Below are positions 7,547-64,000 of a stretch of 64,000 bases of DNA, piece after piece. A program made the position numbers and the translations under genes. Source of the stretch: an uncultured Alphaproteobacteria bacterium (GTDB taxonomy: Bacteria; Pseudomonadota; Alphaproteobacteria; Sphingomonadales; Sphingomonadaceae); assembly GCA_963850395.1 (NCBI GenBank), contig CAWKKZ010000001.1, positions 23,559-87,558 on the forward strand, read 5' to 3'. The notes below the pieces were generated by a model that saw nothing but the letters and a program-made list of their open reading frames with translations, had not been told where the DNA came from and did not search any database. Each line of letters opens with the position of its first letter. Position 1 is the stretch's first letter.

Positions 7547-7933
7547 TTAGTCCAGCCAGCCGAACCAAATGGCAATGAGCTGAGCCAGCATCCCCAGCAC
7601 GAACAGGTAGAGCATGCCCCACAGCAGCGGCCTGGACGGCCGGGCGAGATCGGGGCGGCCTTCGGGGTAGGTCAGCGCAACCTGGGTGCCGAGCGGCGGG
7701 CGCGGGGTGTGCACATAGACCGGGTCGATCACCTCATGCGGGCCGTCCTCAGCGGTAAACCGGTAGACTGCGGCATAGCTGACGCCATCGACGCCGTCAG
7801 ACTTTCGGTGATTGCAAACCTCGCTTTCAACCCGCCGGGTTGAGCGGGTCAGCCGCGGCCAGTCGCGCCATAGCAGCACCGCCAGCGTAAACAGCAGCAG
7901 CGCGATGCCGATACCAACGAACAGGTAGTGCAA
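7547..7933 (-). CDS. DUF3592-like membrane protein
   Basis: Two terminal TMs flanking YAAVYRFT...V.LTYPEGRPD.AR. Confidence 0.65.
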   Translation of the reverse strand: MHYLFVGIGIALLLFTLAVLLWRDWPRLTRSTRRVESEVCNHRKSDGVDGVSYAAVYRFTAEDGPHEVIDPVYVHTPRPPLGTQVALTYPEGRPDLARPSRPLLWGMLYLFVLGMLAQLIAIWFGWLD

Positions 7934-7942
7934 CGAAAGCTC

Positions 7943-53656: not shown

Positions 53657-54178
53657 ATGGCCGCGATGAACAGACTTTACCTCATCCTGCTCGGATCAGT
53701 CGGAGCGATGAGCCTGCTGGCGGCGGCATTCAGTGCGAACCAGCCGGAACAAGCAGAACCGATCGCAGCTGCTACCACGGCAGGGCGCGATGCGGTCCCC
53801 GATGGCTGGCACGATAGCCAGGCGCTGATCTTGCGACGTGACAGCTCGGGCCAGTTCCACGTCAATGCCCAGGTCAACGGCGAAAGCGTGAATTTTCTGG
53901 TCGATACCGGCGCCGACCTGGTCGCGCTGACCCCGGAAGACGCTGAAACACTGGGCCTGGTGTTCGGGGAAATGCAGCCGATCATGCAAACCGCTTCCGG
54001 CGTAGGTTACGGCGCCCCGGTGACAATCGACGAGATCGAAGTGGCTGGAACAATTCTGCACAATGTTGATGCGGTGGTCGCTCAGGACTTGCCGGTCAAT
54101 CTGCTCGGCCAGACAGTGCTGCGCCAGCTTGGCGGGGTCGAGATGAGGGGCGACCAGATGGTGCTTCGCCCCCGCTGA
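53657..54178 (+). CDS. Clan AA aspartic protease (TIGR02281-type)
   Basis: GQFHV.AQVNG, FLVDTGAD, TASG, LLGQTVL. Confidence 0.9.
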   Translation: MAAMNRLYLILLGSVGAMSLLAAAFSANQPEQAEPIAAATTAGRDAVPDGWHDSQALILRRDSSGQFHVNAQVNGESVNFLVDTGADLVALTPEDAETLGLVFGEMQPIMQTASGVGYGAPVTIDEIEVAGTILHNVDAVVAQDLPVNLLGQTVLRQLGGVEMRGDQMVLRPR

Positions 54179-55125: not shown

Positions 55126-55186
55126 TGGTGGCGGAGCGGGAGGGATTGTCCTTCGCTTCGCTTCGGTCGCCTTCGGCTCGAACCCT
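55126..55186 (-). other. Displaced tRNA-Ser-like 3' fragment (putative att site) with a 31-nt T-loop insertion
   Basis: Minus strand reads AGGGTTCGA-[31 nt]-ATCCCTCCCGCTCCGCCACCA: T-arm, acceptor 3' strand, discriminator G and CCA; no 5' half of a tRNA adjoins it. Confidence 0.7.
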
Positions 55187-55246: not shown

Positions 55247-56064
55247 GGTGCTGTCAGGCAAACGCTAACTTGTCTCTGCCGGCGGCCTATTGCCGCGTAG
55301 AGGGACAGGCATGAAACCCATTTCCTACAAGCGCCACCGATTTCCGCCGGACACGATCCGCCTGGCGGTGTGGCTTTATTTCCGTTTCACCACGGGCCTG
55401 CGCGACGTTGAGGAGATGCTCGCCGAACGCGGCATCGACGTCACCTACGAGACCGTTCGCTGCTGGGCCAACAAGTTCGGCCCGGCCATCGCCGCCAACA
55501 TTCGCCGCAAGCGCGGACGTGCCGAAAGCGTCTAGCATCTCGACGAAATGGTGGTCCGCATCGGTGGCAAACGGATGTTCATGTGGCGGGCCGTAGACCA
55601 GGAAGGTGAGGTGCTGGACATGCTGGTCCAGAAACGACGGAACAAGACTGCCGCGCTAAAATTGCTCAGGAAACTGCTCAAAAGCCAAGGCTACATGCCG
55701 GACGAAATTGTGACTGACGGATTGGCTTAATACAAGGCCGCGATGAAGGATCTGGGTTGTAAGGATCGCCATCGACCAGGCCGATTGCGAGACAACAACA
55801 GGGTCGAAAATTCCCACCTGCCTGTCCGACGACGAGAGCGAAAGATGCAGCGGTTCAAGTCCCAGGGTCAGGCCCAGCGGTTCGTTTCCACCCACAGTGC
55901 AATCTACAACACCTTCAATATCCAGCGTCACCTCATCAGCCGAAACACCATGCGTCAGCTCCGAGCGTCGGCCATAGAGGAGTGGCTCGCCGCGTCCGCT
56001 GTCGCAGCGTGAAATCCCACGTATCGGGCGTCGTGCGATCTTGGGAAGTTAACTTGACAATGCC
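55247..56064 (+). mobile_element. IS6 family insertion sequence (about 818 bp)
   Basis: Imperfect terminal inverted repeats GGTGCTGTCAGG (left) and GGCATTGTCAAG (right, reverse complement) around an IS6-type transposase. Confidence 0.75.
55311..56012 (+). pseudogene. IS6 family transposase with two in-frame nonsense codons
   Basis: YKRHRFP, V.YETVRCW, (W)HLDEM, WRAVD.EGEVLD, NNRVENSH; TAG at 55533 and TAA at 55728, all fragments in one frame. Confidence 0.92.
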
Positions 56065-56073
56065 AGGTGGAGA

Positions 56074-57726
56074 CTAAGCGGCCGTCATGCCCACGTCCAA
56101 GCTCTGCGCAATCTCTCGCAGCACAACTTTCTGGACCTTTCCAGTCGATGTTCTTGGCAGTGGTGCAAAGGAATATGCTCTTGGCAGCTTGAAGCCGGCG
56201 AGCTGGGCGCGACAGAAGGCGTCCAGTTCAGCCGAGCCTGCCTGACAGCCGTCGCGAAGTTCAATGAATGCGCAGGGTACTTCTCCCCATCGGGTATCCG
56301 GCTTGGCAACGACTGCCGCATGCAGCACTGCCGGATGTTGGTGAAGGATATCCTCCACCTCAAGCGACGAGACATTTTCGCCACCCGAAATGATGACGTC
56401 CTTGGATCGATCGGTGATGCGCGCATACCCGTCGGGATCCAGCACCGCCAGGTCGCCGGTATGAAACCAGCCCCCGTGGAACGCCATATCGGTAGCATCG
56501 GGATTCTTCAGGTAGCCGCTCATAGTAGCATTCCCCCGAAACATGATTTCGCCCACCGTTTCCCCATCTGCCGGGACGGGCAGCATCGTCTCAGGATCGA
56601 GGACGCACATCTCCTCCTGCGAAATCATCGCCATGCCTTGGCGGGCATTGAGCCGTGCCCGTTCCGCAGCCGACAAGGAACGCCACTCGGGCTGTTTCGC
56701 GCACACGGCGGCAGGTCCGTAAACCTCGGTGAGCCCGTAGACGTGCGTAAAATCGAAGCCGAGACTATCGCCGCTCTCGATCATGGCGCTTGGGGGCGCA
56801 GCGCCTGCAACCATCCCGTCCAACCGTCGCGGTAGCACCGCGCCCGTCCGGGCCAGCTCGTCGATCAACATCGTGTAGACAATGGGCGCGCCGCTCATGT
56901 GCGAGACGCCATGCGTTTGGATCAGATCTAGTGTGACGACGGGATCGACCCGCCTCAGACAGATGTTCGTGCCCCCCTGAGCCGCAATGGCCCACGGAAA
57001 GCACCAGCCATTGCAGTGGAACATTGGCAGCGTCCAAAGGTAGACCGGATTGTGCGGCATGGACCAGGTTATGATCTGGGCAAGGGCATTCAGATGCGCA
57101 CCGCGGTGGTGCGTCACGACGCCCTTGGGATCGCCCGTGGTCCCGGAGGTGTAGTTGAGGGCGATGGGCTCTCGCTCGTCCTCAGGGAAAAGCCATGCGA
57201 AGTCGGCGCTGCCTTCTTCGAGCAGCGCCTCGTAGTCGAGTTCGCCAACCAGCTCGTGCGGTCCGGAATAGACCTCGTCGACTATATCGATGAGGAGGGG
57301 CTTCGCCGCCAGAGAAGCCACGGCAGCCGCGACCGGAGTGCCATATTCGGAGTCGACAAGAACCACCCGCGCACCGCTATGCGCGAGCTGAAATGCGATT
57401 TCGTCGGCCTTGAGACGTGTATTGAGTGTATTGAGAACGGCCCCCGCCATCGGAACACCGAAGTGCGCCTCATACATGGCCGGGATATTGGGAGAGATGA
57501 CCGCTATGATGTCTCCCCGGCCAATCCCGCGTTTCTCCAATGCCGAGGCCAGTTTCCGGCAACGATTGTAAGTCTCCCGCCAAGTCCTTCGGAGTGATCC
57601 ATGAACGAGCGCGATCCGCTCGGGATAGACATGTGCGGCTCTGGGCAAAAACGACAATGGCGTCAGCGGCGTGAAATGCGCCCGCTGGTGTTGCATGCCA
57701 AGAAAGACCTCATTTCCGTCAGTCAT
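56074..57726 (-). CDS. Acyl-CoA synthetase (AMP-forming)
   Basis: TPLTPLSFL, YTSGTTGDPKG, LPMFHCNGW, YGLTE, WFHTGD, DRSKDVIISGGEN, TSTGK. Confidence 0.95.
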   Translation of the reverse strand: MTDGNEVFLGMQHQRAHFTPLTPLSFLPRAAHVYPERIALVHGSLRRTWRETYNRCRKLASALEKRGIGRGDIIAVISPNIPAMYEAHFGVPMAGAVLNTLNTRLKADEIAFQLAHSGARVVLVDSEYGTPVAAAVASLAAKPLLIDIVDEVYSGPHELVGELDYEALLEEGSADFAWLFPEDEREPIALNYTSGTTGDPKGVVTHHRGAHLNALAQIITWSMPHNPVYLWTLPMFHCNGWCFPWAIAAQGGTNICLRRVDPVVTLDLIQTHGVSHMSGAPIVYTMLIDELARTGAVLPRRLDGMVAGAAPPSAMIESGDSLGFDFTHVYGLTEVYGPAAVCAKQPEWRSLSAAERARLNARQGMAMISQEEMCVLDPETMLPVPADGETVGEIMFRGNATMSGYLKNPDATDMAFHGGWFHTGDLAVLDPDGYARITDRSKDVIISGGENVSSLEVEDILHQHPAVLHAAVVAKPDTRWGEVPCAFIELRDGCQAGSAELDAFCRAQLAGFKLPRAYSFAPLPRTSTGKVQKVVLREIAQSLDVGMTAA

Positions 57727-57867: not shown

Positions 57868-58884
57868 CTAGTTGGGTAGGTCAAGCTTGGTATCGCGGTA
57901 TCGATACTCGCGGGGGCCCATGCCAAATTCTCGCCTGAACGCCTTGCTGAAATGGCTCATGTCGTTGAACCCCCATCGCAAAGCGATTTCGGTAACGCTG
58001 CGTCGCGCAAGCGCCGACGCGTCGAGGTCACGACGGCACATCTCAAGGCGGCGCTTCCGAATCCAGTTCGACACCGTCACCCCGGTGCCGGCAAAAATCT
58101 TGTGCAGATAGCGCACATTAATGCCGTTCTCAGCGGCGATCGTCGCGATATCGAGGTCGGACTCCCGCAGCTTTGCCTCCATATAGGCCTTGAGGCGGGT
58201 CAGCTGCCGCTCGCGTGGCGTAATCATCCTGTCCGCGTCGAGCGAACTAAGCGTCATTGCCAGCAGGTCCAACGTAGCGTTGAGCACCGTAACGGCATGC
58301 ACATCCTCGAACGTGCCCAAATGATGCTCGATCGACGACAAGTGATCTAGGAAAAAAGAAAGCAGTCCCTGATCTCGACCCAAAGGAACGCCAACGAACT
58401 CCTCCACGAACGGAAAGACTGAAAGAACTCGGTTTTTTGGGAAGATAAAGTATATCTGGCGAAAGCTGGACGGAATATCCAGCGTCATCGGCCTCGCGCT
58501 GTCGGTAATCGTGAACATTCCCGACTTCAAATCGATGATCCGGCCACCAACATCCAGCTGCGCATCGCCCTCGGCCGCGTAGACAATCGAGAAGTCTTGC
58601 CGCGTCGTTCGCCTGGCAGCGCGGATGTCGTGCGAACATCGAACGCCTTCGGCTCCGCCAAAAGCAACCACGCGAGAATCGCAGACCGTGCGAACTCGGC
58701 TGAATCCGGGGGTTCCGACCGGCATGGGCCGTTCGATATGCCACTCATGCGCGGTATGAGCAGAGACGGTCGTGTCCCAAATCCCTCGGGCAATGCCGCC
58801 GTCGATCCGCTGCGATGTCCACATTCGCGGATCGATCGAGAAATCGCTCTCTGGCGCAATAGGGACCTGCAAGGCGATAGCCAC
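57868..58884 (-). CDS. AraC family transcriptional regulator (FeaR-like)
   Basis: C-terminal dual HTH (IAAENGINVRYLHKIF; RRLEMCRRDL; IALRWGFNDMSHFSKAFRREFG.GPREYR); GTG start after a purine-rich RBS. Confidence 0.92.
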   Translation of the reverse strand: MAIALQVPIAPESDFSIDPRMWTSQRIDGGIARGIWDTTVSAHTAHEWHIERPMPVGTPGFSRVRTVCDSRVVAFGGAEGVRCSHDIRAARRTTRQDFSIVYAAEGDAQLDVGGRIIDLKSGMFTITDSARPMTLDIPSSFRQIYFIFPKNRVLSVFPFVEEFVGVPLGRDQGLLSFFLDHLSSIEHHLGTFEDVHAVTVLNATLDLLAMTLSSLDADRMITPRERQLTRLKAYMEAKLRESDLDIATIAAENGINVRYLHKIFAGTGVTVSNWIRKRRLEMCRRDLDASALARRSVTEIALRWGFNDMSHFSKAFRREFGMGPREYRYRDTKLDLPN

Positions 58885-59008
58885 GAATCCTCTCCCTCCT
58901 TCGACGGTGCATCCGCCCATCTTATGCTTTTACGGTTATCTTCACAATCATTGGCTGCCCCGCGTGACGCTTGCCAAATGCCCCGTGCGGGCAGCCGCAT
59001 AATCCATA

Positions 59009-59440
59009 TCAGGCGGCCTGCGCCTGCTGTCCTTCAATGATTTTGTCGATCCATCGCGAATCCATGATCTGGGACGGATTGCTATTCTCATCCATGAACA
59101 TGATTGGCCCATGGGTGATGAACAGCATCTCGGTTTCTTCGGGGAACACCGTCTTCTCGTGCAGCGAGCCATAGGGCTCATAGCCGGAGTCACCTGCGGG
59201 GGCGAGCTGATCACGATAATTGAGCGCGCCGCTCATTATCAGATAATCACAACCGGCGAGGTGAAGATGCGGCGCAAAAGTGCCACCTTTCTGGCCGCGA
59301 AGAATGCAGGAAAATCCACCGGTCGAGGGGTCGGTGCTGATCACCTCCATCTTCACGCCCTCCGCTAATGGAGCAGGAATATCGAATACCGGCTTCTCGG
59401 CCTTCGTGACGTGCATTTCATTGGCAGCTCTGGACTTCAT
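59009..59440 (-). CDS. Cupin dioxygenase of the Dke1 (acetylacetone-cleaving) / 2,4'-dihydroxyacetophenone dioxygenase type
   Basis: FAPHLH ... GYEPYGSLHEKTVFP ... GPIMFMDE resembles the recalled Dke1 pattern FASHIH ... GFESSGALHGKTFFP ... GPLNFIDD; three His positions conserved. Confidence 0.7.
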   Translation of the reverse strand: MKSRAANEMHVTKAEKPVFDIPAPLAEGVKMEVISTDPSTGGFSCILRGQKGGTFAPHLHLAGCDYLIMSGALNYRDQLAPAGDSGYEPYGSLHEKTVFPEETEMLFITHGPIMFMDENSNPSQIMDSRWIDKIIEGQQAQAA

Positions 59441-59516
59441 ATCACTCTCCTAAGATATGGGATTTTTATAGGGCCAAGCGCCAAGACATTCTTGGACGAA
59501 CGGCCCTAATAACTTG

Positions 59517-60215
59517 TCACAGAGCGCCCTCGACTTGCGGGAGAGCGCGCTCGATACGTTCGGCAAGCGCGGTAAGAAACGCACCGCTTGGTGCTCCGTC
59601 GATCACGCGGTGGTCGGTCGTGAGTGAGAGCCCGAGTTCAGGGCGCGTACCGATCTGGCCGTCCTCTCCGATGAATACCGACGGCGATATCCGTCCAATC
59701 CCAAGGATGCCGACCTGGCCACCGTTCAGGATCGGCGTGAAATACTCTACCCGGGTCGTGCCGAGATTGCTGATCGTGAACGTCCCGAACGACATCTCCT
59801 CGACCGTCAGCTTTCGTTCCTGCGCGCGTTTGGCCAGAGCGCGACGGGCCGCGACGACCTCTGGTAGCGTGAGGCCGCGCAGATCAGGCAGTGCCGGCGC
59901 GACGAGGCTGTCTCCGACCACCATTGCGACGGAGATACGAATCTCCTCATAGATCTGGACTGCATCCGCTGTCGCCGTGGCGTTGAAGCGCGGATGATCG
60001 AATAGGGTGTCGCGGATTGCGACGAGTAATAGGTCCTCAAAGCCGGCCTCGACGCCTGCCTCTTTCCAGGCCTTGCGGGTCGCGACGAGCTGCGTCGCTT
60101 CGATGCGGGCGCAGAAGGAGAGCTGGGCGGTCGTAGCCAGGCTTTCCATCATCTTGCGCGCAATCATCTTGCGCATGCCTGTAATCGGCAGCGACTGTGA
60201 CGGCAACGGGATCAT
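59517..60215 (-). CDS. 2-oxo acid dehydrogenase E2 acyltransferase, catalytic domain only
   Basis: GMRKMIA, TFTISNLG, FTPILN, ILGIG, TTDHRVIDGA. Confidence 0.92.
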   Translation of the reverse strand: MIPLPSQSLPITGMRKMIARKMMESLATTAQLSFCARIEATQLVATRKAWKEAGVEAGFEDLLLVAIRDTLFDHPRFNATATADAVQIYEEIRISVAMVVGDSLVAPALPDLRGLTLPEVVAARRALAKRAQERKLTVEEMSFGTFTISNLGTTRVEYFTPILNGGQVGILGIGRISPSVFIGEDGQIGTRPELGLSLTTDHRVIDGAPSGAFLTALAERIERALPQVEGAL

Positions 60216-60454
60216 GCCACTGAGATGACGCCGAGCAAGGCACCAACCGAAACGACATCCTCGACGGCAGCGCGCTGTGCGAGGCGCCCAGCGATGGGGG
60301 CCGCCACCTCGAACGTCACCTTGGTGACCATCAGCTCGCAGACGACGTCGCCCTCGTCGACATGCTCGCCTTCATCAACGAGCCAGTTCGCCAGAACGAT
60401 TTCGGCGTCCTCCTCTGCCATCCCTTCCGGGACGCGGATTTCAGTGCTGCTCAT
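60212..60454 (-). CDS. Stand-alone lipoyl domain protein
   Basis: WLVDEGEHVDEGDVVCELMVTKVTFEVAAPIAG; ATGA overlap with the E2 gene. Confidence 0.88.
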   Translation of the reverse strand: MSSTEIRVPEGMAEEDAEIVLANWLVDEGEHVDEGDVVCELMVTKVTFEVAAPIAGRLAQRAAVEDVVSVGALLGVISVA

Positions 60455-61499
60455 ATGAAATGATCTCCAAAACCGTGTCTACGATCTTCTCGGCCGAGGG
60501 CAGCGCGGCTTGCTCGAGCACGCGCGCAAATGGCGGCGGCATGTCGGGATAGGCGATGCGCGCGGGAGGACTGCGCAGGTCGCGGAACCCACGCTCACTC
60601 ACCTGCGCGATGATTTCGCCCGCGACACCGCAATTCGAATAATCCTCGTCGATGACCACGAGGCGGCCAGTACGCCGAACCGACTTGAGGATCGTGTCGA
60701 TATCCAGCGGAACGATCGAGCGGATGTCGATGACCTCGGCATTGATGCCCTGTTGCTTGAGCGCGTCGGCGGCATCGATTGCGAGATGGACCGTCGAGGC
60801 CCAGCCGACCAGCGTCACGTCACTTCCTTCGCGGACGATGGCCGCTTCGCCGATCGGTATCGTGTAGAGCTCCTCGGGAACGTGCACGATCGTGCGCTTG
60901 ACCGTGCCGAGCCATCCGATGCCCTGGAGGCCCTTATGGCACATGAAGATCACCGGGTTCGGATCGCGCATCGCCGACACCATCAGGCCCTTGGCATCAT
61001 AGGCGTTGGACGGGGATACGATCTTCATACCCGGCATGTGCGCGAAGGTGGCGTAGAGGCATTGCGAATGCTGGCCGGCGTCGGAATAGCCGCCGCCGGC
61101 GGAGGTGGTGAGTACCATCGGGCAGGTGACGCTGCCGCCGGAAAAGTAGGATTGCTTGGCGGCAAGATTGTAGATCGCGTCGAAGCACACGCCGAGGAAA
61201 TCGACGAACATCAGTTCCACGATTGGCTTCATCCCGACCGCCGCCGCGCCAACGGCGGCACCGATGAAGGCGGTTTCAGAAATCGGCGTGTCGCGTATGC
61301 GCTCAGCACCGAACTCGGCTAAAAGGCCGGTCGTCATTCCGAACACGCCACCGAAGGCGCCGATATCCTCGCCCATGACGAATACCGATGGATCGCGTCG
61401 CATCTCTTGGGCAGTGGCCTCAGTAATCGCTTTCGCGATGCTGATCTTCCGTTGCTTGGCGACCTTTTGGGGGGCGAGCAGGACTGAAGTGGCTGTCAT
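60441..61499 (-). CDS. TPP-dependent dehydrogenase E1 beta subunit (acetoin/pyruvate dehydrogenase-like)
   Basis: GEDIG, RIRDTPISE, VELMFVDF, GQHSQ, PSNAYDAKG, IDIRSIVPLD. Confidence 0.94.
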   Translation of the reverse strand: MTATSVLLAPQKVAKQRKISIAKAITEATAQEMRRDPSVFVMGEDIGAFGGVFGMTTGLLAEFGAERIRDTPISETAFIGAAVGAAAVGMKPIVELMFVDFLGVCFDAIYNLAAKQSYFSGGSVTCPMVLTTSAGGGYSDAGQHSQCLYATFAHMPGMKIVSPSNAYDAKGLMVSAMRDPNPVIFMCHKGLQGIGWLGTVKRTIVHVPEELYTIPIGEAAIVREGSDVTLVGWASTVHLAIDAADALKQQGINAEVIDIRSIVPLDIDTILKSVRRTGRLVVIDEDYSNCGVAGEIIAQVSERGFRDLRSPPARIAYPDMPPPFARVLEQAALPSAEKIVDTVLEIISYEQH

Positions 61500-62497
61500 A
61501 GTTCCTCACATTCGGCAAAAACGGTGGCAAGCGCGCCTGCGATTTCCGGGTCGGGGCTGCCTCGCGAATAGGACACGGCCTCATCGACCAACCGTCGGCC
61601 GTTCTGCTCGATCGATGAGACCACGGTCTCGTCCGCGATGCCGGTCTCGATGAGCATCGCCCGGAAAAGCGGCAACTCATCCTTGGCGAACAGCGCGTCC
61701 TTCTCCCCTGCGGGCCGATAGGCTTCGACATCGCCCATGAAGTGGCCCTCGAGACGATATGTCTCGATTTCGATCAGGGTCGGACCGTCGCCGGCGCGTG
61801 CCCTGGCGATCGCTTGACCCGCCGCAGCATGGACCGCGAGCGTGTCGTTGTTGGGAATGAAAACCCCGGGAATGCCATAGGCCAGCGCGCGCACGTCGTT
61901 GCGCGGCACGGCCGTCGATGAACTCTTAGGCACTGAAACGCCGTAGGCGTTGTCCTCGATGATGCAGATGAACGGAAGCTTCCACACGGCGGCGAGGTTC
62001 ATCGCCTCGTGCCAAGCGCCTTGGTTAACCGCAGCTTCGCCGACATAGGCGACGGCAACATGAGGTTCGCCCCGCATCTTAAAAGCGAGCGCCGCACCCA
62101 CCGCCGGACCCATGCCCTGGGCGATGATGCCCGAGCATGTAAAATTCACGGCCGGGTCGAACAGGTGCATGTGGCCAGCAAGGCCGCCTGAAAGGCCAGT
62201 CGACTTTCCGAGAATTTCCGCAGTCATCGCCTGCAGGTCGACGCCTTTGGCGATGGCAACATGGTGCGGGCGATGACCGGCCGATACGAAGTCTTCAGGC
62301 CCGAGATGAACGCAAACCCCGACCGCACAGGGTTCTTGGCCGTTAGATAAATGCATCTCGCCGGGGAGCGGGCCGTTGGCCATATTGAAGAGCGGCGTCT
62401 TGCCCTCGAGATAGATGTCGCGAATGCACTCCTCATAATAGCGAGACATCGCCATACGGTCGTACATCCACAGCAGGGTATCGTTGCGTGCGGTCAT
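61496..62497 (-). CDS. TPP-dependent dehydrogenase E1 alpha subunit (acetoin dehydrogenase-like)
   Basis: GEMHLSNGQE, HRPHH, GHMHL, GEAAVNQGAWHEAMN...EDN, TYRLEGH. Confidence 0.94.
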   Translation of the reverse strand: MTARNDTLLWMYDRMAMSRYYEECIRDIYLEGKTPLFNMANGPLPGEMHLSNGQEPCAVGVCVHLGPEDFVSAGHRPHHVAIAKGVDLQAMTAEILGKSTGLSGGLAGHMHLFDPAVNFTCSGIIAQGMGPAVGAALAFKMRGEPHVAVAYVGEAAVNQGAWHEAMNLAAVWKLPFICIIEDNAYGVSVPKSSSTAVPRNDVRALAYGIPGVFIPNNDTLAVHAAAGQAIARARAGDGPTLIEIETYRLEGHFMGDVEAYRPAGEKDALFAKDELPLFRAMLIETGIADETVVSSIEQNGRRLVDEAVSYSRGSPDPEIAGALATVFAECEEL

Positions 62498-62506
62498 GGG
62501 AAGTCC

Positions 62507-64000
62507 TTAAAATCGGGCCGTCAACGTGAGGCCGTAAGTCCTGGGGGCAGCCTGGCGCTGCGCATCGCCCAGTCCGGCCTGTTCGGATCGGCCGGCATAA
62601 TAGGTGACGTCGGTGAGGTTCTTGACCCATAGCTGGGCATCGAAATGGTCGCCCGGGAGAGCCCAGTTTAGCGAGGCGTTGACCAGCCAGAAGCTGGGCT
62701 GAGTCAGGCGATTGTCGGCGTAGAAGAAGTAGCCGTCGTTGTAGGCGGCGTTGACCGCAAGGCGGAATTCGCCGATTTTCGTCTGAACCCCATAGTCACC
62801 GCCGATGCTGGCGGTAAACTTCGGCGTCGAGATCGTCCGGTTGCCCTTTGCATCTATCGTGAGAATGTTTCCAAAGGCGTCAGTCGACTCGCCATTGGGC
62901 CCCACGGCGGGAGCGTTCGGATAGCTGGTATATTTGCCGTCCAGCAGCGAAATGCTGGCATCCAGATTGAGGTTGCTGACCGGCCGAGCCTGCAGCGTAG
63001 CTTCCAGCCCCTTGATCCGCGCTCGCGCCGCATTGCGCGTAACGATGCTGCCGAGCTGAGGAATTGTAACTTGAATATTTTTATATTCGTAGAGGAAGGC
63101 CGCGATGTTGAAGCGCAACCGCCGGTCAAACCATTCGGTTTTAAAGCCGGCTTCATAGGCGTCGAGGACCTCGGGTTTAAAAGGCGCGTCGGTCGGCGCA
63201 AGCAGGTTGAAGCCGCCACTCTTGAAACCCCGGTTATAGGAGACATAACCGAGGACATCGGTGGTGAAGTGGTGGTCGAGCGCGGCCCGCCACGTCAGCT
63301 TGCTGAATGTCTGCCGATCGTTCGGCAGGGGGATGACAGCGCCACCAACGGCGAAATTGTCGACGATCAGCTTCTGGCGCTCGTAGGTGTAGCGCAGACC
63401 GCCCGTAAGATTGGTATCTGGGAAGATCTCTGCGGTCGCCTGACCAAAACCTGCAAACGACTGAGTCTTCTGTTTGTCGGCAAGAACCACTACGCCATAA
63501 TCGACATCGAACGGCGTGTAAGCGGCAACCGAATCAAAGAAGAAGCCGCCTAGAACCCATTTGATCGGTGCGGTAGACGCGCCATGCAGCTGGACTTCTT
63601 GGCTCCAGTTGTGCGCCTTTGAGGGGAGGCTCAGGTCGGCCACAATAGCGGGTGTGTCATCCTGATCGAGCAGGTAGCGCACGTTGGAGCGGCGATAACT
63701 CGTGATGCTGACGAGTTTGAGATCCCCTAAGCCCTGTTCGATCTGCAGCGAGCCACCGCCAGTGTTGAGACGCTCAAGGTCGCGCAGTCCGGTCGTCGAG
63801 TTGTACTCACCGGGATAGGTCGAAACCCCGTCCGCGCCGATAACTCCGGGAACCAGCTGATAGGAGTAACGCGAGAGAGAGTGCGAATAATCGAACGCTA
63901 GCAGGACGGTGGTCGGGCCGGTCGGGCCGAACTTCAACTTCGTGCGAACGGCATAGTTGTTATCGGCCATGATACCATTGTCTTGACCAGTGTTGAGGTT
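62507..64000 (-). CDS. TonB-dependent receptor (C-terminal part; truncated by the window edge)
   Basis: WSQE, LTGGLRYT.E, SYNRGFKSGGFN, LDAYEAGFK, WVKNLTD, PRTYG...C-terminal F; frame stays open past 64000. Confidence 0.94.
   Translation of the reverse strand, partial: NLNTGQDNGIMADNNYAVRTKLKFGPTGPTTVLLAFDYSHSLSRYSYQLVPGVIGADGVSTYPGEYNSTTGLRDLERLNTGGGSLQIEQGLGDLKLVSITSYRRSNVRYLLDQDDTPAIVADLSLPSKAHNWSQEVQLHGASTAPIKWVLGGFFFDSVAAYTPFDVDYGVVVLADKQKTQSFAGFGQATAEIFPDTNLTGGLRYTYERQKLIVDNFAVGGAVIPLPNDRQTFSKLTWRAALDHHFTTDVLGYVSYNRGFKSGGFNLLAPTDAPFKPEVLDAYEAGFKTEWFDRRLRFNIAAFLYEYKNIQVTIPQLGSIVTRNAARARIKGLEATLQARPVSNLNLDASISLLDGKYTSYPNAPAVGPNGESTDAFGNILTIDAKGNRTISTPKFTASIGGDYGVQTKIGEFRLAVNAAYNDGYFFYADNRLTQPSFWLVNASLNWALPGDHFDAQLWVKNLTDVTYYAGRSEQAGLGDAQRQAAPRTYGLTLTARF

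Follow-up and report, generated by a model that had tools for sequence, protein, structure and literature searches.

A mobile sphingomonad gene cluster with a Dke1-family cupin and a split acetoin dehydrogenase-like module probably encodes the catabolism of a dicarbonyl compound

We analysed a cluster of genes on a genomic island of an uncultured alphaproteobacterium of the family Sphingomonadaceae (assembly GCA_963850395.1), in which a small cupin of the Dke1 type is encoded beside a TonB-dependent receptor (TBDR) and the parts of a thiamine pyrophosphate (TPP)- and lipoyl-dependent dehydrogenase, and which probably serves the degradation of a dicarbonyl compound. The cluster lies in a 64,000-nucleotide (nt) stretch of contig CAWKKZ010000001.1 (C1:23559-87558; hereafter the window), and its genes were checked by listing open reading frames and by profile searches with Pfam and NCBIfam. 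An earlier reading of the bare sequence (the sequence-only reading) had described a co-oriented run of TonB receptor, E1 alpha, E1 beta, free lipoyl domain, E2 and cupin, joined by an AraC regulator and an acyl-CoA ligase; profiles and strand confirm this description, as all eight genes are present and all are on the minus strand. Within the window, the run comprises, in the direction of transcription, the receptor TBDR1 (62507-64000, C-terminal 497 amino acids; TonB_dep_Rec_b-barrel, 1.6e-44), a TPP-dependent, AcoA-like E1 alpha of 333 amino acids (61496-62497; E1_dh, 1.1e-63), an E1 beta of 352 amino acids (60441-61499; Transket_pyr, 6e-41; Transketolase_C, 3e-39), a free-standing lipoyl carrier protein of 80 amino acids (60212-60454; Biotin_lipoyl, 2.5e-10), an E2 acyltransferase of 232 amino acids that consists of the catalytic domain only (59517-60215; 2-oxoacid_dh, 1.9e-55), the 143-amino-acid cupin, a putative Fe(II)-dependent, C-C-cleaving dioxygenase with a three-histidine (3-His) site (59009-59440; Cupin_7, 1.6e-22), a FeaR-like regulator of the AraC family (57868-58920; HTH_18, 1.7e-21; AraC_binding_2, 5e-07) and an acyl-CoA synthetase of the PRK08162 type with 550 amino acids (56074-57726; NF006020, 848 bits against a cut-off of 677). 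The dehydrogenase genes overlap by 4 nt (E1 alpha/E1 beta), 14 nt (E1 beta/lipoyl) and 4 nt (lipoyl/E2, ATGA), and only 9 nt separate the TBDR stop codon from the E1 alpha start. The gaps ahead of the cupin, AraC and ligase genes measure 76, 88 and 141 nt, and the cupin gene has a good ribosome-binding site (AGGAG). A scan for promoters and terminators gave a result no better than that for shuffled sequence. The same-strand run extends past the end of the window with a second TBDR gene and then a paralogue of the lipoyl synthase gene lipA.

The cupin matches the Cupin_7 profile with 79.8 bits against a cut-off of 27, and it has neither a second domain nor a signal peptide. Compared with the sequences of the PDB, it is most similar to Dke1 (3BAL, 2.2e-11), followed by a protein of Methylibium (2O1Q, 1.9e-10), and the match to 2,4'-dihydroxyacetophenone dioxygenase (DAD) is much weaker (3e-4). 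An AlphaFold2 model built with 12 orthologues (predicted local distance difference test score 88.7) was compared with known folds by Foldseek, and the same three proteins occupied the top ranks, with template modelling (TM) scores of 0.81 (3BAL), 0.85 (2O1Q) and 0.73 (DAD); the anti-sigma factor ChrR followed at rank 47 with a TM score of 0.53. In Dke1, three histidines ligate the metal, and Tyr70, Arg80, Glu98 and Thr107 were shown by mutagenesis to be needed for Fe(II) binding and O2 reduction (Straganz review, PMC4019311). H58, H60 and H94 of the cupin align with the metal ligands His62, His64 and His104 of Dke1, and Y66, R76, E88 and T97 with its outer-shell residues Tyr70, Arg80, Glu98 and Thr107. 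Across the 12 known orthologues H58, H60, H94, Y66, E88 and T97 are invariant (12/12), and R76 is present in at least 90%. The N-terminal zinc-binding anti-sigma domain of ChrR-type proteins is absent, and the neighbouring genes encode E2 and an AraC regulator, with no sigma factor gene.

Maximum-likelihood analysis places the 12 orthologues in a clade with a long stem and strong support (98/99) that stands apart both from the clade of Dke1 and from a large clade of related cupins to which NCBI gives the name '2,4'-dihydroxyacetophenone dioxygenase family'; DAD itself is only remotely related and has a very long branch. The close clade is rare: it is represented by 12 clusters among 5.8 billion proteins, no member besides the one described here was found among 400 sampled genomes of the order, and the host genome carries a single copy. 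Judged by sequence and modelled fold, the cupin is best assigned to the Dke1/DAD dioxygenase family and not to the ChrR type. The sequence-only reading had called it Dke1-like and had named its metal triad as a point to check; the PDB sequence search, Foldseek and the tree agree with this view in grouping the cupin with Dke1 and DAD rather than with ChrR, and the outer-shell residues are kept in addition to the triad. Other cupin functions were considered and dropped: the uronate enzymes of the KdgF/KduI type belong to another cupin family, the cupin lyases of dimethylsulfoniopropionate share a generic fold likeness alone (TM ~0.5), and the family profiles of acireductone dioxygenase gave no match. 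In a separate locus from another genome (L052, G034 contig 447, 1426-6170), two Cupin_7 paralogues flank a TonB receptor and an AraC gene, and one of them is of a near-canonical Dke1 type, with the loop and with Phe115 and Phe119 of Dke1.

The dehydrogenase encoded upstream of the cupin has a divided architecture, in that the lipoyl and catalytic domains of E2 are encoded by two separate genes. The lysine that would be lipoylated in the carrier protein, K45, is found in the expected context (TKVTFEVAAPIAG), and the catalytic motif DHRVIDG is intact in the E2 protein, which aligns to PDB 6ZZI. No profile match to a lipoyl or an E3-binding domain was obtained in the catalytic protein, nor one to the E3_binding domain in either E2 piece. 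E1 alpha scores below the equivalog cut-off for pyruvate dehydrogenase (TIGR03182, 251 bits against 394) and E1 beta scores above that of NF006667 (349 bits). The pair is one of five E1 alpha/beta systems in the genome, the other four being only 31-37% (alpha) and 40-43% (beta) identical to it. Further afield, thousands of proteins with ~65% identity to E1 alpha are found in Pseudomonas, Marinobacter, Paracoccus and other bacteria; some of these proteins bear the name acetoin:DCPIP oxidoreductase, which comes from automated annotation only. The family is marked by the TPP motif GE[GA]A...EDN in place of the usual GDG...NN, and by a 10-residue insertion (TPLFNMANGP) that is absent from the pyruvate dehydrogenase-type E1 alpha of this genome. 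In all contexts examined, E1 alpha is followed by E1 beta and then by a free lipoyl protein of 75-82 amino acids, and the module usually continues with a catalytic-only E2 of 220-234 amino acids, often with a gene of the LplA/B type. Because the free lipoyl protein and the catalytic-only E2 recur across copies of the module, the split of E2 is, on the sequences compared, a trait of the family and no local accident.

The module is found with three kinds of partner. In Pseudomonas aeruginosa, in Amaricoccus and in four of the six genomes in which it was detected among a phylum-wide sample of 400, it adjoins genes for the small and large subunits of a glucose-methanol-choline (GMC) dehydrogenase, and these contexts also contain a sigma-54 activator of the MimR/AcoR type and often a glyoxalase. 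Two-subunit GMC enzymes of this kind from Methylocella and Methylacidiphilum form methylglyoxal by oxidising acetol (PMC7364539; PMC8630023; bioRxiv 10.64898/2026.06.11.731722). A second set of partners, seen in sphingomonads without the cupin, consists of a TBDR, a Rieske oxygenase and a ligase, and the third is the cupin, as at the locus studied here. Methylglyoxal is also a product of Dke1, whose type of dioxygenase splits beta-diketones with O2 into a carboxylate and a 2-oxoaldehyde. Since two unrelated partners, the cupin and the GMC dehydrogenase, are both linked to methylglyoxal, we infer by analogy that the module may consume a 2-oxoaldehyde or a closely related small acyloin.

We next consider how far the association of cupin and module extends. 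A search of genome contigs for related loci yielded only three close loci, and the wider survey came from searches across sampled genomes. Among close orthologues of the cupin, the gene order TBDR-E1 alpha-E1 beta-lipoyl-(E2)-cupin-AraC-(ligase) is kept in seven loci, namely those of Sphingobium fuliginis, Sphingobium sp. YBL2, Sphingomonas sp. Root710, Sphingomonas sp. Y57, two metagenome-assembled genome (MAG) or genome records and one metagenome contig; the ligase is kept in five of the seven. One MAG or genome record (L007) contains no receptor and only an 85-amino-acid remnant of E1 alpha (7684-7941), which suggests from its sequence that this copy of the cluster is decaying. More distant cupins, 35-41% identical, have the same partners in shuffled order. 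In one arrangement (variant C; Kordiimonas pumila and others), an AraC gene stands beside the run TBDR-cupin-SDR-PrpE-like ligase-E1 alpha-E1 beta-lipoyl-E2-LplA/B-MOSC, where SDR denotes a short-chain dehydrogenase/reductase. In another (variant B), the genes form the divergent operons [ligase<-cupin<-TBDR] and [AraC->SDR->E1 alpha->E1 beta->lipoyl->LplA/B]. In a sample of 401 genomes of the order, the cupin (match at E<=1e-21) was present in 9 and the module (E1 alpha at >=55% identity) in 15, and all nine cupin-bearing genomes were among these 15; the genomes are related by descent, so that the counts are not independent trials. The two lie no more than 5 kb apart in seven of the nine and at matching contig ends in the other two. 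The association, with its genes rearranged, was seen in four or more families of the order. It also reaches beyond the order: in one genome, belonging to a different family of the class, the module has AraC, ligase, TBDR, cupin and SDR genes as neighbours. The rearrangement of gene order among the variants argues for selection on co-occurrence rather than for shared ancestry alone. Beyond the lineages described so far, the gene most closely tied to the cupin is that of the AraC regulator. The sequence-only reading had proposed a search for conserved synteny, and the co-occurrence of cupin, E1, lipoyl, TBDR, AraC and ligase genes, which is conserved in several families and extends to a genome from beyond the order, speaks in its favour; its inclusion of the ligase and E2 in the set stands for the cluster described here, but the ligase is not orthologous between the variants and E2 is missing in some.

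The cluster sits on an integrated island of ~21.5 kb at a tRNA-Ser gene, since a dip in GC content, a recombinase gene at the tRNA gene and a repeat of the tRNA 3' end at the opposite boundary are found together. The GC content drops from ~0.65 to 0.54-0.62 across window positions ~54.4-76.4 kb (~22 kb; genome mean 0.64), and the dip is located between the two copies of the repeat. The far end of the island carries phage-like DUF5681 genes, a DUF2924 gene and a gene for a large serine recombinase of 522 amino acids, the last two directly adjoining an intact tRNA-Ser(GGA) gene (C1:97368-100218; L053 810-3660), which itself occupies C1:100128-100218. At the near boundary lies an att-like repeat of the tRNA-Ser 3' end (55126..55186, minus strand), within which ~19 nt at ~55126-55145 are an exact repeat of the 3' end of tRNA-Ser(GGA); the common sequence is AATCCCTCCCGCTCCGCCA. 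A recombinase at a tRNA gene, a direct repeat of its 3' end and deviant base composition are the hallmarks of tRNA-integrated islands, and the word 'island' in the sequence-only reading is justified by all three. Between the att-like repeat and the ligase gene lies a transposase gene of the IS6 family (DDE_Tnp_IS240; 55290-56012, plus strand), broken into three pieces by in-frame stop codons. Just outside the island, a gene for a retropepsin-like aspartyl protease of 173 amino acids (gag-asp_proteas, 7e-21; 53657-54178, plus strand) is followed by an EamA transporter gene.

Beyond the end of the window, the full TBDR1 gene reaches window position ~64657 (L001 9507-11783) and its plug and barrel domains are complete. 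In six other loci, an orthologue 68-82% identical to TBDR1 directly precedes E1 alpha. Here, the minus strand also encodes another TBDR, with 51% identity to TBDR1, at L001 11883-14057 (window ~64883-67057); Sphingomonas sp. Root710 also has both receptor copies, 73% and 82% identical to those here. Upstream of both receptors lies the lipoyl synthase gene (L001 14208-15323, window ~67208-68323, minus strand), which is a second copy, its protein being 84% identical to that encoded at C3:1157835-1158698. It is without counterpart in the close-orthologue clusters of other genomes, and variants B and C have an LplA/B-like gene instead. The sole LipB/LplA-type gene of the host genome sits off the island, as do five Pyr_redox_dim genes that are candidates for E3, none of which is on the island. 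A precedent for a lipoate-synthesis gene in such a cluster is acoS in the aco cluster of Pelobacter (PMC3543383). A Flavodoxin_2 gene (NAD(P)H quinone-oxidoreductase or KefF-like; L001 15545-16336, plus strand) is divergent from lipA and lies inside the island. The sensor domain of the AraC regulator is of the AraC_binding_2 type and its best named model is FeaR (139 bits, below cut-off); a regulator of this type stands beside the cupin in every context examined, lone cupin-AraC pairs included. The best PDB match of the ligase is the long-chain fatty acyl-CoA synthetase of Thermus (1ULT, 4e-80). The ligase of variants B and C is PrpE-like (819 bits to PDB 5GXD) and not orthologous to the PRK08162 type found here. 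Because the nearest structure is a long-chain fatty acyl-CoA synthetase here and PrpE-like elsewhere, the acid activated in this cluster may, on sequence grounds, be longer than that in variants B and C.

Overall, the genes very likely form one functional unit maintained by selection, and this unit is probably an AraC-controlled catabolic operon on a mobile island that imports and degrades a dicarbonyl, most likely a beta-diketone. The reactions, their order, the class of substrate and the inducer that we propose are read from the genes, as follows. One or both TBDRs would carry the compound over the outer membrane, and in the cytoplasm the Dke1-family Fe(II) cupin would use O2 to cut the C-C bond beside a carbonyl group, so that a carboxylic acid is formed together with a 2-oxoaldehyde or vicinal dicarbonyl. 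The acid would be converted to its acyl-CoA by the PRK08162-type ligase. The AcoAB-like E1 would attack the keto carbon of the oxo fragment by means of TPP, with release of a C1 unit (formate) or an aldehyde, and would reductively acylate the free 80-amino-acid lipoyl protein, from which the stand-alone catalytic domain of E2 would pass the acyl group to CoA. A dihydrolipoyl dehydrogenase of the host would reoxidise the carrier, the extra copy of LipA could assist its lipoylation, and the FeaR-like regulator probably, by analogy, senses the substrate or an aldehyde product. To the whole chain of import, oxidative cleavage, activation of the acid by the ligase and delivery of the oxo fragment to the TPP complex we give a probability of roughly 0.5. 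The adjacency of GMC genes in four of the six module-bearing genomes of the phylum-wide sample lends indirect support to the last of these steps.

Several observations weigh against this pathway. The hydrophobic substrate pocket of Dke1, which we take to be Phe59, Phe115 and Phe119, is not preserved in the cupin, whereas the other sequence and fold features of the family are: F55 is kept, but Met105 and Thr109 stand at the positions of Phe115 and Phe119, and the six-residue loop at Dke1 residues 88-93 is missing. The substrate therefore need not be one of those of Dke1, and the residue changes suggest that it differs from them. The clade of the cupin is, moreover, about equally far from Dke1 and from the broad 'DAD family' clade. 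Nor is the chain invariant, as the Y57 locus (L005) has E1 alpha, E1 beta and lipoyl genes but neither an E2 catalytic gene nor a ligase, the ligase is missing from Root710 as well, and variant B (L041, L044, L045, L046) has no E2 catalytic gene, an LplA/B-like gene following directly after that for the lipoyl protein. The cupin also occurs with the AraC gene alone, without E1 and E2, in a myxobacterium and on a marine TARA scaffold. On the side of the chemistry, a TonB receptor would be an unusual importer for a small neutral diketone, and we know of no enzyme of the 2-oxoacid/acetoin dehydrogenase family that converts a 2-oxoaldehyde to an acyl-CoA and formate. The GMC neighbours of the module elsewhere are likened to acetol dehydrogenase by type and are at most candidate orthologues of AceDH or Msil_1641, and the nearest PDB structures to the Pseudomonas GMC protein are the large subunits of fructose and glucose dehydrogenases, no structure of an acetol dehydrogenase having been matched. 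The suggestion in the sequence-only reading that the substrate might be aromatic or lignin-derived found no support: a paper on the lignin G-diketone in Novosphingobium aromaticivorans (PMC8612281) is silent on acetoin, cupin, TonB, lipoyl and thiamine genes, and no other finding pointed to such a substrate.

Some of the same evidence can be read in other ways. The cluster could serve an acyloin or vicinal-diketone pathway, in which the imported compound would be a 1,2-diketone or an alpha-hydroxyketone. E1/E2 would split it to yield an acyl-CoA and an aldehyde, much as acetoin dehydrogenase splits acetoin into acetaldehyde and acetyl-CoA, and a DAD-like cupin would convert a terminal alpha-hydroxyketone to an acid and formate, as a parallel branch or a later step. 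Such a role would suit the acetoin:DCPIP oxidoreductase labels on the ~65% identical relatives of E1 alpha, the NCBI name of the related cupins and the rank of DAD as third-best fold match (TM 0.73), as well as variants B and C, which add a PrpE-like short-chain ligase and an SDR of the sort catalysing the interconversion of diols, acyloins and diketones. However, the cluster studied here has no SDR, the cupin is nearer in sequence to Dke1 (2e-11) than to DAD (3e-4), DAD occupies a very long branch of the tree, and the outer-shell residues Tyr70, Arg80 and Thr107 are kept in the cupin and not in DAD; we consider this pathway rather unlikely, though not implausible. The occurrence of the cupin followed by an AraC_binding_2 regulator alone in the myxobacterium and on the TARA scaffold, together with the arrangement AraC|TBDR-cupin without E1 and E2 in Niveispirillum, would fit a sensing or detoxifying function, in which the cupin, paired with the regulator, would bind some small reactive molecule or convert it and in this way control transcription, its link to E1/E2 in sphingomonads being secondary; Cupin_7, after all, takes its name from the sensory domain at the C terminus of the anti-sigma factor ChrR. 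Conservation of the catalytic residues of Dke1 through the clade is what would be expected of an enzyme, ChrR is a distant fold match (rank 47), and all nine cupin-bearing genomes of the order also have the E1 module, so that we find this function improbable.

The receptors invite the further thought that a metal-diketonate complex is imported and that the cupin destroys the ligand to free the metal, the remaining enzymes clearing the fragments. Beta-diketones do chelate metals, the best subfamily model of TBDR1 is that of siderophore receptors (TIGR01783, 115 bits, below cut-off), and its PDB matches are siderophore receptors too, but these are generic and cover the plug domain only. The regulator, by contrast, is of the AraC/FeaR type, the cluster is without genes for a periplasmic binding protein, an ABC importer or a reductase, a complete acyl-CoA-forming set exceeds what metal release would need, and TonB receptors of sphingomonads take up many non-metal nutrients (PMC7142613); metal acquisition is thus very improbable. 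We regard it as equally hard to believe that an acetoin dehydrogenase-like module landed by chance beside unrelated cupin, regulator, ligase and receptor genes. The module is indeed portable, as its several other contexts attest, but the association recurs in rearranged form, both within the order, in no fewer than four families, and in a single genome beyond it, and the module is present in 9/9 cupin-bearing genomes compared with 15/401 overall.

The interest of a catabolic pathway built around a Dke1 relative is that, after two decades of work on Dke1 as a model of 3-His iron enzymes, its natural substrates and pathway context are, to our knowledge, poorly known; a conserved and mobile pathway of this kind would provide a handle on both. 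The split-E2 module comprises thousands of sequences and is apparently uncharacterised, and its two main partners point to 2-oxoaldehydes or small acyloins. We tentatively suggest, as a possibility still on the doubtful side, that the portable module is a CoA-acylating dehydrogenase for 2-oxoaldehydes of the methylglyoxal type (R-CO-CHO -> R-CO-CoA + formate), recruited independently by Dke1-like dioxygenases with TBDRs in sphingomonads and by GmcAB acetol dehydrogenases in clusters of the acetone/propane type. If so, it would provide a direct, non-glyoxalase route by which toxic ketoaldehydes enter central metabolism, and would add to a textbook enzyme family a new type of reaction that handles methylglyoxal-type compounds. 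The proposed pathway, if true, would also supply an annotation for a recurrent TonB-receptor nutrient locus of sphingomonads.

The cluster is probably a previously undescribed, conserved and mobile catabolic pathway for a dicarbonyl or hydroxyketone nutrient. A literature search that covered journals outside subscription found no published description of the cluster or of Dke1 together with a TBDR and E1/E2, in keeping with the statement of the sequence-only reading that it knew of no such pathway, and no published characterisation of the split-E2 module or of a stand-alone lipoyl carrier acting with an acetoin or 2-oxoaldehyde dehydrogenase. The closest known counterparts of the cupin are Dke1, the acetylacetone dioxygenase of Acinetobacter johnsonii (3BAL), and Mpe_A3659 of Methylibium (2O1Q), which are likewise single-domain Cupin_7 proteins of ~145 amino acids with a 3-His site and a Tyr/Arg/Glu/Thr outer shell. 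They are, however, only ~22-30% identical to the cupin, which does not keep Phe115, Phe119 and the six-residue loop, and, in contrast to Dke1, the cupin belongs to a separate, narrowly distributed clade and is encoded in an operon with a TBDR and E1/E2. DAD (5BPX/4P9G) shares with it the Pfam family, the 3-His site and the C-C-cleaving dioxygenase fold, but differs in its weaker sequence match and in lacking the Tyr, Arg and Thr outer-shell residues common to Dke1 and the cupin.

The dehydrogenase, as far as its genes reveal, resembles acetoin dehydrogenase (AcoA/AcoB/AcoC/AcoL, with AcoS in Pelobacter carbinolicus) in having a heteromeric TPP-dependent E1 of the size of AcoA and AcoB and a predicted lipoyl-dependent acyl transfer to CoA, and in both systems a lipoate-synthesis gene lies within or beside the cluster (PMC3543383). 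Whereas AcoC is a single E2 that carries its own lipoyl domain, the lipoyl and catalytic proteins are encoded separately here, and in place of AcoL (E3) and the sigma-54 activator AcoR of the aco cluster there is no E3 gene and a regulator of the AraC family. The cluster further adds a TBDR, a dioxygenase-like cupin and an acyl-CoA ligase. From the pyruvate and branched-chain 2-oxoacid dehydrogenases it differs in that E1 alpha is below the equivalog score and E2 is without the peripheral-subunit-binding domain. Nearest of all is the GMC-linked module of Pseudomonas, Amaricoccus and others, which has the same four-gene core with the same split E2 and an E1 alpha 55-69% identical to that described here, but is partnered by a GMC dehydrogenase, a glyoxalase and an activator of the sigma-54/MimR type instead of the cupin, TBDR, AraC regulator and ligase of the sphingomonad cluster.

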